DNA from: a virus
Taxonomy: Duplodnaviria > Heunggongvirae > Uroviricota > Caudoviricetes
Direction: 5' to 3' (one strand)
DNA: 30,914 nt
IMG/VR virus record: IMGVR_UViG_2537562231_000009
Coordinates: 1-30,914 of that record
Made by a program: the position numbers and the translations under genes. This document shows positions 17,283 through 20,303 of this stretch, in pieces. Positions within the stretch are counted from its first letter, which is position 1; every line of letters starts with the position of its first letter. The notes below the pieces were generated by a model. The model saw only the letters and a list, made by a program, of their open reading frames with translations. It made no database searches and was not told the DNA's origin.

Positions 17283-17306
17283 GGCTCGCTTCGGCGGGCC
17301 TTTTTT
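17283..17306 (+). terminator. Rho-independent terminator after the tRNA cluster
   Basis: Hairpin GGCTCGC-TTCG-GCGGGCC followed by a T6 run. Confidence 0.6.
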
Positions 17307-17438
17307 GTATCTGCGCCACGCCCGGCGCATATCAACCACAGAGCCTTTCGGGGGTGAGCTTACGGAGTGGTCAGTGTGACTTTCTCTGTGGGCAGATCGC
17401 TCCCGGGCGTTGGCTCACCCACCCAAAGGAACGTCACG

Positions 17439-17870
17439 ATGTTTGGAATCTTCAAAAAGAAAACCCGCAGAGCGGCAGCGGAAATTAAAAAGTTTGAGAA
17501 ACGCGATCTGGCACAGGCGGTGATTAACGCTGCATACCTGGTGGCCTATGCAGATGGTGAATGCGAGGCATCCGAGAAAGCGAAGATCGAACAGGTCTTA
17601 CGTAATCAGCCTGCGTTGTCTGCGTTTACCTCGGAAATTAATGCGATTAGCGCAACCATTATCGGTCAGCTGGATACCAATTTTAAAATTGGTCGTCGTG
17701 CCGCGTTACGCGAGATTGAGGATGTGAAACACGATACGCGTGAAGCGGAAGATGTGCTGGATGTGGCGGTGGCCATTGCGGAGGCAGACGGCGAAATTGA
17801 GCCGGAAGAGCGCAAGGTGCTGGAAGAGATTGCCGGTGCTCTGGGTCTTCGTCTGGAGAATCACCTGTGA
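17439..17870 (+). CDS. TerB-like (tellurite-resistance TerB family) protein, 143 aa
   Basis: Internal start of track ORF 17367..17870 with AAGGAA Shine-Dalgarno; acidic helical protein with repeated EADGExE-type motifs. Confidence 0.65.
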   Translation: MFGIFKKKTRRAAAEIKKFEKRDLAQAVINAAYLVAYADGECEASEKAKIEQVLRNQPALSAFTSEINAISATIIGQLDTNFKIGRRAALREIEDVKHDTREAEDVLDVAVAIAEADGEIEPEERKVLEEIAGALGLRLENHL

Positions 17871-18034
17871 CGGTAAAACTGCGCCTGGCTGTGGCTGCAC
17901 TCCTGCTGTTTCTGGTGGTGATGGTGGATTTCACCACCAGAATCATGTCGGTGCTGGCGGATGGGGTGCTGGTCTGCGGCATTGTGGTATTGCTGTGGCC
18001 GGTGATAAAAAGAAACAGCCTGCATAATGCTTGA
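17867..18034 (+). CDS. Possible small membrane protein, 55 aa, GTG start overlapping the TerB stop
   Basis: GTGA overlap with the TerB stop; almost entirely hydrophobic (VTVKLRLAVAALLLFLVVMV...); speculative. Confidence 0.3.
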   Translation: MTVKLRLAVAALLLFLVVMVDFTTRIMSVLADGVLVCGIVVLLWPVIKRNSLHNA

Positions 18035-18209
18035 CTTTTTTGTCTGCTGTTTATTAAAAACACTTCTGCATGGTGAATCCCCCTGTGCGGAGGGGCGATC
18101 AGCAACCAGGTATATGTTATAGGCAAGCCGACGCGGGTTCAGTGACACCGGCTGAATTCACCGGGAGGCACCCGGCACCATGCAAGAAAAAGAATGTGCA
18201 TGCAAACAT

Positions 18210-18236
18210 GCCCCTCTCCGGAGGGGCATTTTTTAT
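18210..18236 (+). terminator. Rho-independent terminator
   Basis: Hairpin GCCCCTC-TCCG-GAGGGGC followed by ATTTTTTAT. Confidence 0.6.
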
Positions 18237-18449
18237 GGGTAAAAAATGCCCGAATGGGTTCGGGCAATAGCATGAGATACTGATATTGTTGTGTTGTTAT
18301 CGTGTGGATTTTAACCAGGGTTTATCAGGCTGCGCAACTGCGTGGCCTTTTTTCATTTCTTGGGCTGTAGTCCCCGTGTGTCATTCAGGCTTCCGGACTA
18401 CAGCCCACTCCATATCTGATTTAATACACTATCCCGGCCGGGAGGAATA

Positions 18450-20303
18450 ATGACATTTAAACATTATGATGTTGTCAGGGCGGCGTCGCCGTCAGACCTT
18501 GCGGAAAAGCTGACACACAAACTGAAAGAGGGCTGGCAGCCGTTTGGTAGTCCGGTGGCCATAACCCCTTATACCCTGATGCAGGCGATTACAGCAGAAG
18601 GTGATGTGGTGGTCAGTGGTGCAACTGAGCCGGATTGGTACTACGTCATCGTACTGGCCGGGCAGTCCAATGCCATGGCTTACGGTGAAGGGCTTCCGCT
18701 GCCGGATTCATACGATGCTCCGGATCCGCGCATTAAACAGCTGGCGCGCCGCAGTACAGTTACGCCGGGTGGGGCTGCCTGCAGATATAACGATATTATT
18801 CCGGCCGACCACTGCCTGCATGATGTGCAGGATATGAGTACGCTGAATCATCCGAAGGCAGACCTGAGCAAAGGGCAGTACGGCTGTGTCGGCCAGGGCT
18901 TACATATTGCCAAAAAACTGCTTCCGTATATCCCGAATAACGCGGGGATCCTGCTGGTACCATGCTGTCGTGGTGGTTCTGCATTCACCCAGGGCGCTGA
19001 GGGGACATTCAGTGCGGACACGGGGGCCAGCCAGGATTCGGCGCGCTGGGGTGTGGGTAAACCGTTATATCAGGACCTGATTGCGCGCACTAAAGCTGCA
19101 TTACAGAAGAACCCGAAAAATGTGTTGCTGGCGGTGTGCTGGATGCAGGGAGAGTTTGACATGAGCGCCGCCACCTACGCACAGCAACCTGCGCTGTTTA
19201 CAGCCATGCTGAAGCAGTTTCGTGCTGACCTCACTGTGTTTAACGCGCAGTGTCATGGTGGCAGTGCTGTAAATGTGCCGTGGATTTGTGGTGACACGAC
19301 GTATTACTGGAAAAACACCTACGGCACGCAGTACAACACCATTTACGGGGCGTACAAAAACAGGGAGAGTGATGGCGTTTATTTTGTACCCTTCATGACA
19401 GACGGTAACGGCGTCAATACCGCCACTAACGCGCCGACAGAAGATCCGGATATTCCGGCATCAGGATATTACGGTGCGGCATCGAGAACGAATGGAAACC
19501 AGGTATCATCAAACCGCCCGACACATTTCAGTTCATGGGCGCGCAGGAGCATTATTCCGGATCGTCTGGCAACCGCTATTCTGAACGCAGCCGGGCGCAC
19601 CTCAGCCTTCATCAGTGGTAAGGCACCGGAAATCAAACCCTCGCCCGGCGGCAACACACCATCGGGTCCGTCTGCAGATACGTCCGTTCGCACAATCTCC
19701 CTGCTGCCGACAGCCGGAGAGGCTGCTGCGCAGGGCTGGACCATTAAGGACGGCGGAATTCAGTTGTCGGGTGGTGTATTTAAGATCGCCAAGCAGAGCA
19801 ATAAAACCTGGTCCCTGACGCATCCGGTGGATGACGCAATTACCCTGCTGACACAGGGCGGCAGACTGACCTGTAAGTTCCGCCTGTCAGGCGCACTGAC
19901 CAACAATCAGTTCGGGCTGGGGATTTATCTGTATACGGACGCTCCCGTTCCTGATGGTGTGGCGATGACGGGTACCGGTAATCCGTTCCTGATGTCGTAC
20001 TTCACTCAGACCACTGACGGTAGAGTGAATCTGATGCATCACAGGAAAGCCGGAAACACGAAGCTGGGGGAGTTCGGCGATTACGGTAACGACTGGCAGA
20101 CGCTGGAGCTGGTGTTCACCGCCGGCAGTGCCACGGTTACTCCGAAACTGAATGGAGTGGCTGGCCCGGCATTCCAGGTTATAAAAGACAGTCTGACACT
20201 GGGACTGAATGCGCTGACGCTGACGGATGTTACAAAAAATGCAGCGTATGGCGTTGAGATAGAAAGTCTGGTGCTGGAGATAAATGCACCGGCATCATCA
20301 TAA
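18450..20303 (+). CDS. nanS: NanS-p-type 9-O-acetyl-sialate esterase (DUF1737-like N-terminus plus SGNH/SASA esterase domain)
   Basis: N-terminus [21 protein letters not shown] and esterase motif [11 protein letters not shown]; sits just upstream of the lysis cassette, as in Stx phages. Confidence 0.8.

Follow-up and report, generated by a model that had tools for sequence, protein, structure and literature searches.

A tciA-tciB gene pair in the late-operon moron slot of a lambdoid prophage that lacks stx and is related to Stx1a-converting phages

The 30,914 nt of IMG/VR virus record IMGVR_UViG_2537562231_000009, which were analysed as a whole and are referred to as the window, come from a lambdoid prophage without stx, which in other respects is closely related to phages converting their host to production of Shiga toxin (Stx) 1a. 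The interval between the transfer RNA (tRNA) genes and the nanS-p-type esterase gene of this prophage is a late-operon "moron" site, which holds the gene pair tciA-tciB (tciAB). All coordinates given are positions in the window, unless they follow an L-number, which denotes a comparator locus (L005 is the Stx2 phage 06-3462 and L013 the Stx1a phage LC727896). The identity of the gene pair, the architecture of the site and the exchange of its cargo are, taken jointly, highly probable. A preliminary description of this DNA had already placed a 143-aa TerB-like gene in the interval, together with a 55-aa hydrophobic open reading frame (ORF) overlapping its stop codon, and had stated that toxin genes are absent. 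All three points agree with our results: the two genes are recovered by profile searches, and a tblastn search of the window with the A and B subunits of Stx1 and Stx2 gave nothing above noise (best E=0.019 over 29 aa).

The tciA gene (17439, ATG, to 17870, TGA; plus strand) is preceded by an AGGA Shine-Dalgarno sequence about 9 nt 5' of the ATG and encodes a 143-aa TerB-domain protein with matches in Pfam, PHROG and the PDB. Residues 26-138 match positions 2-109 of the 118 positions of the Pfam profile TerB (PF05099) with 60.7 bits (cut-off 24.4; E=2e-16), and the match to PHROG 632 ("tellurite resistance", moron category) has an E-value of 2e-69. The solved TerB protein of the Klebsiella terZABCDEF system (PDB 2JXU) aligns near full length, residues 14-137 of TciA with residues 20-144 (E=1.8e-8), and this alignment includes both acidic (A/S)DG...E motifs (ADGECEASEK and ADGEIEPEER in TciA, SDGVSSEEK and SDGNFDDDEK in 2JXU). 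However, the sequence identity is low, and TciA also differs from the Klebsiella system in being phage-borne, presumably transcribed late, and accompanied by a 55-aa DUF3927 protein. No terC, terD or terE was found near tciA, whose neighbours are tRNA genes, the DUF3927 gene, small RNA (sRNA) genes and the esterase gene, so the locus is not a ter operon. TciA is 99.3% identical to its counterpart in phage Evi and 96.5% identical to that in phage JLK-2012. Judged by the ratio of synonymous to non-synonymous codon differences, which is 31:5 against the JLK-2012 allele and 41:4 against that of PPyecE_EH1910, tciA is under strong purifying selection.

The second gene, tciB (17867, GTG, to 18034; plus strand), begins within the tciA stop codon, as start and stop overlap in the sequence GTGA, which implies that the translation of TciA and TciB is probably coupled. 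TciB comprises 55 aa and matches Pfam DUF3927 (PF13064) with 59.2 bits (cut-off 25; E=4e-16) as well as PHROG 1470 ("TciB-like") with E=5e-29. Hydropathy analysis gives two hydrophobic segments, at about residues 5-21 and 29-47, with flanking basic residues, as expected of a protein with two transmembrane helices. An alignment with TciB from the phages P1, Pollock and SP-076 revealed the core DF(T/S)x(R/K)xxSxLADGxLV...WP, which is kept in the lambdoid, P1 and N4-like copies and lies between and within the two hydrophobic helices. The "ADG" of this core is similar to the ADG of the TerB motifs, possibly by coincidence. The GC content of tciAB is 51-54%. There is no tciC-like ORF 3' of tciB, where an STnc100-family gene begins 4 nt after the stop codon, and the pair does not constitute a P1-type tciABC module.

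The part of the interval 3' of tciAB is taken up by two sRNA genes. The first, of the STnc100 family (18039-18240, plus strand), matches Rfam RF02076 over the full length of the model with 150.5 bits (cut-off 47) and ends with a terminator hairpin at 18208-18229 (plus strand). The second, coding for the anti-GcvB sRNA AgvB (18241-18302, minus strand; RF02702, 96.5 bits, cut-off 56, model positions 1-62), is convergent with and directly abuts the first; it includes the GcvB R1 target consensus CACAACA and has its own terminator at 18266-18247 (minus strand), a hairpin that folds. All terminators reported here come from a terminator scan. The preliminary description had counted two terminator hairpins in this region. 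These hairpins are present, but they are not bare terminators, since the one at 18208-18229 ends the STnc100 gene, and both sRNA genes had been overlooked. Just 5' of agvB, a promoter-like site on the minus strand (TTGCGC-18-TAAAAT) can be recognized by reading the sequence, and a second terminator-like hairpin on the plus strand (18327-18348) overlaps the -35 region of this putative agvB promoter. AgvB may thus be driven by its own minus-strand promoter and act in the lysogen. Tree et al. 2014 (PMC4104026) showed that AgvB relieves repression by GcvB and that it promotes growth in bovine rectal mucus. Because this sRNA has a demonstrated role in host colonisation by O157:H7, a copy of it in the interval suggests that the slot affects the physiology of the host even without a toxin. 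According to a 2026 preprint, the genes conserved next to the prophage sRNAs PasA and PasC include TerB, and STnc100 and AgvB lie nearby.

Upstream of tciAB lies a late control region of the type known from Stx phages. The gene for the antiterminator Q, the activator of late transcription, is located at 12157-12582 (plus strand; Pfam Phage_antitermQ, 161.6 bits), and its start is given as PGAP places it at locus L007, which is 99.9% identical. A pR'-like late promoter, TTTACA-16-TATCAT, was found by promoter scan at 16572-16599 (plus strand, 10/12 matches) and aligns with the annotated pR' of 06-3462 (L005 5667-5694) within a block of 93% identity; this homology to the late control region of 06-3462 restarts at 16557, after an intervening block with hok/sok and restriction-modification (RM) genes. 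The promoter is followed by a tR'-like intrinsic terminator (16630-16649, plus strand) aligning with an annotated terminator at L005 5727-5749, and by the 3' end of a DNA methyltransferase gene (16827-16979, plus strand). The latter is a 50-aa ORF belonging to the conserved Stx-phage backbone, and the counterparts that occupy this position in 06-3462, phi296 and E. coli genomes are labelled as DNA methylase or partial site-specific DNA methyltransferase. Three tRNA genes on the plus strand, detected by ARAGORN and Rfam, come next: Met/Ile2(cat) of the ileZ type with a CAU anticodon (17020-17095), Arg(tcg) of the argN type with UCG (17103-17179) and Arg(tct) of the argO type with UCU (17193-17269). 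Stx2 phages have a tRNA cluster with 93-97% identity to this block. An intrinsic terminator hairpin at 17282-17301 (plus strand) forms the 5' edge of the tciAB cassette. The methylase remnant, the tRNAs and this post-tRNA terminator all align with annotated counterparts in 06-3462. In total, the stretch 16500-18500 contains seven terminator-like sites, compared with 2.1 +/- 1.6 in shuffled sequences.

On the other side of the slot, the first conserved late gene is that for a nanS-p-type sialate O-acetylesterase (18450-20303, plus strand; Pfam DUF1737, SASA and DUF6645), whose counterparts in related phages are annotated as NanS or 9-O-acetyl-N-acetylneuraminic acid deacetylase. It is followed by genes for a P21-type holin, a DUF1327 protein and a lysozyme. 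The order of Q, tRNAs, cargo, esterase and lysis genes had been likened to that of Stx phages in the preliminary description, and the colinearity described below bears this out in general; however, Q does not stand directly before the tRNAs, as a 4-kb block (12535-16556) lies between them. About 45 nt 5' of the nanS-p start codon, at 18361-18407, there is a perfect 13-nt inverted repeat, TGGGCTGTAGTCC ... GGACTACAGCCCA, with a 21-nt loop. There is no T-run behind it, and it is therefore not a typical terminator.

Between the hairpin at 17282-17301 and the tciA start codon lies a conserved leader of about 135 nt (17305-17438, plus strand). Most of its positions are invariant in five aligned loci, and the mean column identity of the alignment, with the upstream hairpin included, is 85%. 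The leader folds as a long hairpin with a minimum free energy of -58.2 kcal/mol (z = -2.5 against shuffled sequences). The five sequences are nearly identical and thus too alike for an analysis of covariation, and no Rfam family was found in 17305-17438 at E<=0.1. Hairpin and leader accompany tciA in five different upstream contexts, including those without upstream tRNAs.

Since no promoter-like site precedes tciA (the promoter scan found none on the plus strand in 16600-18500), terminators lie upstream of it, and the pR'- and tR'-like elements are homologous to annotated ones, expression of tciAB is probably late and dependent on Q. Without a promoter of its own, the pair would be transcribed from the pR'-like promoter at 16572-16599 and would be reached only when Q lets RNA polymerase pass tR' and the hairpin at 17282-17301. 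TciA and TciB would then be made together with the lysis genes after induction, as is stx2.

When window positions 6000-30914 were compared with the phage collection, the best matches were Stx1a-converting phages, which cover 76% of the query at 94.6% identity. The window is colinear with these phages at 89-99% identity in the early, Q, pR', sRNA, esterase, lysis and terminase/portal regions; the blocks shared with LC727896 are 6000-12534, 16557-16866, 18054-20306, 20459-22937 and 23326-30914. In LC727896, stx1AB (L013 8859-10085) lies within L013 8641-10179, the counterpart of window positions 16867-18053. The Stx2 phage 06-3462 shows a corresponding picture: homology ends at 17317 and restarts at 18050, and its stx promoter and stxAB (L005 6419-7787, 1369 bp) stand in place of 17318-18049 (732 bp of tciAB). 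E. coli 2013C-3033 carries stx1c on the same backbone (97-99% identical), and here homology ends at 16866 and restarts at 18050. The Stx1a phages and 2013C-3033 thus share their backbone with the window, 2013C-3033 including the hok/sok and RM genes behind Q, but have the stx1 promoter and stx1AB where the window has the end of the methylase remnant, three tRNAs and tciAB. In other relatives the slot is empty. It measures only 80 bp in phage phi296, strain 2013C-3250 has the tRNAs and then nothing, and the strains JNEC-KY174 and KY177 have neither tRNAs nor cargo. Strain Z1323HEC0393 has the arrangement of the window at 99% identity. In strain E110019, which has the same backbone, tciA is separated from the tRNAs by two additional small hypothetical ORFs of 225 and 210 bp (L014 5580-6066), and therefore the slot can hold stacked cargo. 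The right junction is constant: in the Stx1, Stx2, stx1c and empty-slot loci it falls at 18049-18054, at the 5' end of the STnc100 gene.

We also ran a composite query, made up of tciAB, stx2AB and stx1AB, against the complete E. coli genomes. None of the 5,426 genomes has tciAB joined to stx, the maximum coverage of 41% corresponding to stx2 alone. Likewise, none of the 130 phage records with a TciA homolog bears the name of a Stx-converting organism, and the only E. coli-phage records with more than 95% TciA identity are those of Evi, JLK-2012 (two records) and PPyecE_EH1910. Going by these searches, tciAB and stx are mutually exclusive. The window shares the colinear backbone of Stx-converting phages and lacks stxA and stxB.

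As judged from these loci, the comparison has shown that cargo is exchanged between the conserved flanks. The preliminary description had regarded the slot as a swappable cargo site and had proposed a comparison of synteny with Stx1 and Stx2 prophages, which indeed yields colinear flanks with stx at the position of tciAB. The backbone of the window is found with stx1AB in the Stx1a phages and with stx1c, an empty slot, or tciAB with extra ORFs in other E. coli. Two findings had been named that would speak against a swappable site, namely that the prophage is unrelated to the Stx-phage lineage or that the same gene occurs alongside stx as part of the backbone. Since the similarity to Stx1a phages contradicts the former and the lack of any tciAB-stx join among the 5,426 genomes contradicts the latter, this interpretation stands. 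Together with its Stx1a relatives, the window offers a clean near-isogenic pair, tciAB versus stx1 on one phage backbone, which is useful for asking what a non-toxin cargo does for the phage.

The arrangement itself is already known and very common, and we regard the slot as an ordinary, previously described swappable moron site that adds no new biology. The names tciA, tciB and tciC originate from phage P1. The pair is annotated as tciA/tciB in phage JLK-2012 (NC_049942) and as "TciA/TerB-like" in PPyecE_EH1910, while in RefSeq genomes the PGAP names are "tellurite resistance TerB family protein" and "DUF3927 family protein"; in Evi, too, the pair bears names of one of these kinds. A match to the cassette is present in 1,145 of the 5,426 complete E. 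coli genomes and covers at least 80% of it in 790 of them, with a median of four places per genome; the best matches are 99.5-99.6% identical, and O157:H7 genomes contain several copies each. With a near-full-length copy in at least 15% of the complete genomes, and often several, TciA/TciB is among the commonest E. coli prophage cargo of its kind.

For O157:H7 Sakai, Tree et al. 2014 (PMC4104026) have reported that the region downstream of pR', which is antiterminated by Q, tolerates moron insertions, with stx2 in Sp5 and other coding sequences in Sp3, 4, 9, 10, 11, 15 and 17, and that convergent sRNAs lie between the moron coding sequences and a conserved ORF. Going by its sequence, the window has all parts of this architecture, with Q, pR'/tR', tciAB, STnc100 (plus strand) and AgvB (minus strand), and nanS-p. 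It is another instance of the Sakai pR' moron sites described together with AgvB and AsxR (Tree et al. 2014), without any essential difference. Its likeness to JLK-2012, Evi and PPyecE_EH1910 is also close: TciA is 96.5-99.3% identical, the pair stands after Q, and the same hairpin and leader lie 5' of it. In JLK-2012 and PPyecE_EH1910 tciAB also precedes nanS-p and the lysis genes, whereas Evi has no nanS-p. In contrast to the window, JLK-2012 has Asn/Thr/Gly tRNAs upstream and PPyecE_EH1910 a toxin-antitoxin-like pair, and all three phages lack the hok/sok and Type IIG RM block between Q and pR'. P1 resembles the window in that the gene for a TerB protein of 43-51% identity directly precedes one for a DUF3927 protein, close to tRNA genes. 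However, P1 has the third small gene tciC, its module belongs to the C1-controlled ban operon and not to a late operon, and P1 is a phage-plasmid and not lambdoid.

With respect to the function of TciA and TciB, we tentatively suggest a membrane-anchored TerB module, in which TciB would anchor or partner the cytoplasmic TerB domain at the inner membrane and the pair would aid the phage during lytic growth. TerB-like domains also adjoin a membrane anchor in DjlA of E. coli, and ter operons confer phage-inhibition phenotypes and resistance to pore-forming colicins. An interaction of TerB with TerC, a membrane protein, has been reported (Turkovicova 2016, as cited in PMC11003894). The pairing of TciB with TciA would be analogous to the pairing of TerC with TerB in ter operons, a 55-aa membrane protein taking the place of TerC. 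The pair might help the infected cell to withstand an insult to its membrane or envelope, or might exclude competitors such as superinfecting phages or pore-forming colicins. The combination of TerB and DUF3927 occurs in the temperate phage P1, in the C1-controlled ban operon, and also in the Schitoviridae phages Pollock and FSL SP-076; the cluster of SP-076, described as virulent, has no lysogeny module. The ORF after TerB in Erwinia phage ChrisDB (245 kb) is labelled TciB-like by PHROG but has no match to Pfam DUF3927. That phages lacking a lysogeny module carry the pair suggests that it acts in the infected cell and not in the lysogen.

It is rather doubtful, and speculative on our part, whether this can be extended to a dedicated phage module conserved in lambdoid, P1, N4-like and possibly jumbo phages. 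In such a module a metal-binding TerB protein, held at the inner membrane by its 55-aa partner, would shield the infected cell from membrane-targeting attack by superinfecting phages, pore-forming colicins or abortive-infection effectors. As an occupant of the same late-expressed site, it would then be an alternative to Shiga toxin in terms of fitness, and its repeated placement at tRNA clusters might reflect a shared counter-defence island.

An alternative follows from the database names. TciA and TciB might be made in the lysogen and give it resistance to tellurite or oxidative stress, which would fit the membership of TciA in the TerB family, the increased survival that ter clusters confer under both kinds of stress (PMC11003894), and the GC content of tciAB, which looks native to E. 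coli. We consider this unlikely. The smallest construct cited as conferring resistance is terBCDEF and not terB alone (PMC11003894), and the window has no terC, terD or terE nearby. Furthermore, tciAB has no promoter of its own and a terminator directly upstream, and the pair is also present in phages lacking a lysogeny module. Finally, O157:H7 strains that lose their ter islands show a tellurite minimum inhibitory concentration of <= 4 ug/ml (PMC3064760), although O157:H7 genomes hold several tciAB copies. Taking this together, it is unlikely that tciAB confers tellurite resistance on the lysogen.

One could also assume that the pair has no function at all and is a selfish hitchhiker, kept in the population only by the strongly conserved anchors for recombination on both sides. 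The dispensability of the P1 homologs in the laboratory and the lack of any reported phenotype would fit this view. Nevertheless, the excess of synonymous over non-synonymous differences in tciA (31:5 and 41:4) and the retention of the gene pair together with the TciB core motif in P1, N4-like and lambdoid phages make a functionless pair quite improbable.

Several observations weigh against the interpretation of tciAB as a late-expressed, exchangeable module acting in the infected cell. The genes tciA, tciB and tciC of P1 were non-essential in a CRISPR interference screen. PADLOC returned no significant defence match for either protein (for TciA only PDC-S48 with E=0.0044 and no qualifying stretch, for TciB none), and a literature search gave no phenotype for a phage TerB; one on DUF3927 gave nothing relevant. 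The module is early in P1, stands beside early-type genes (dUTPase) in N4-like phages and is late in the window, which makes a role in lysis timing unlikely. The argument concerning tellurite is indirect, and the roles assigned to promoters and terminators rest on consensus scans and on annotations that are themselves transferred by similarity. Concerning the slot, its left boundary is not fixed and falls at 16866, 17263, 17282, 17304 or 17317 depending on the comparator. Because this boundary shifts, the tRNA cluster is itself variable cargo and the region is a mosaic and not one discrete site. In view of these junctions, "mosaic hot spot" describes it more aptly than "single insertion site".

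As to the mechanism of the exchange, cargo would be swapped by recombination between the conserved flanks, with the pR'/methylase-remnant/tRNA region on the left and the STnc100 gene on the right. Such an exchange would take place among the many lambdoid prophages sharing one cell and would not involve site-specific insertion. It is conceivable instead that tciAB moves like an integron cassette or a transposon and inserts at a defined target after the tRNAs, which could explain why the cassette keeps a constant 5' edge, formed by the hairpin at about 17282, although several of the contexts upstream of it are unrelated. However, no direct or inverted repeats bound the cassette, as the search for them gave only terminator look-alikes and internal hairpins, and there is no recombinase nearby. 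The junctions rather fall where sequences are homologous, at tRNA/terminator on the left and at STnc100 on the right, as predicted for homologous recombination. We therefore rejected the site-specific cassette as very improbable, and homologous recombination between shared flanks is the simplest mechanism, because repeats bounding the cassette are lacking. That tciAB is a normal colinear late gene of the lineage, present beside stx in Stx phages as well, is hardly credible: the cassette is indeed very common in genomes of Shiga toxin-producing and enteropathogenic E. coli that also carry Stx phages, but the Stx1a, stx1c and Stx2 relatives have no tciAB at the homologous position, relatives with an empty slot exist, and neither the 5,426 genomes nor the 130 TciA phage records link the pair to stx.

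The tciA-tciB pair adjoins tRNA clusters in four unrelated phage groups, represented by the prophage of the window, JLK-2012, P1 and ChrisDB. The tRNAs concerned are Ile2/Arg/Arg in the window (17020-17870) and Asn/Thr/Gly in JLK-2012 (L001 4792-5786). P1 has Asn/Thr before tciAB and Ile after it (L008 1616-3276), and ChrisDB has Trp/Cys before and Tyr/Gln/Ile/Met after it (L009 886-3277). In the N4-like phages and in PPyecE_EH1910, tciAB is not beside a tRNA cluster. The idea that the tRNAs serve the codon usage of tciA was rejected, since the relevant rare codons amount to 0.7 per 100 in tciA as compared with 6-8 per 100 in stxA.

The 4-kb block at 12535-16556, between Q and the pR'-like promoter, is extra in comparison with both Stx1a and Stx2 phages. 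It takes the place of the last approximately 48 nt of Q and separates Q by about 4 kb from the site at which it presumably acts. This block is also found on prophages with stx1c, with tciAB or with empty slots. It begins directly 3' of Q with a hok/sok-type toxin-antitoxin module, made up of sok (12613-12787; Rfam sok, 118 bits) and a 51-aa Hok/Gef ORF (12782-12937), and continues with a Type IIG restriction-methylase gene (13104-15410; PADLOC REase_MTase_IIG, 770 bits) and a gene for the specificity subunit of the RM system (15470-16564; PADLOC).

The Type IIG gene contains a perfect heptanucleotide repeat, (GACCAGC)x34, at 13121-13358, between the two possible start codons (ATG at 13104 and 13112) and the conserved body of the gene. 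In the window, the frame of the ATG at 13104 is open through the repeat and gives a 768-aa product, and the other two frames run into a stop a few codons past the repeat. In six related loci (L006, L007 and L014-L017) the tract has 44-89 uninterrupted copies; two of the six include one or two imperfect units, with total tracts of 404 and 458 bp. If the window is counted as the seventh locus, the frame from the ATG at 13104 is open in four loci (768-880 aa), and in the other three neither ATG is in frame. The alignment to the PADLOC model begins at residue 108 of the long ORF and at position 15 of the model, and because of this the N-terminus of the Type IIG family seems to project into the repeat. 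PGAP places the start of the gene after the repeat and labels the opposite strand as a "YXWGXW repeat-containing protein". A full-text literature search for the GACCAGC repeat unit gave nothing relevant. The variation in tract length and reading frame looks like phase variation of a prophage restriction enzyme by a simple sequence repeat, long repeats being prone to assembly error, and this observation may be more novel than the tciAB slot.

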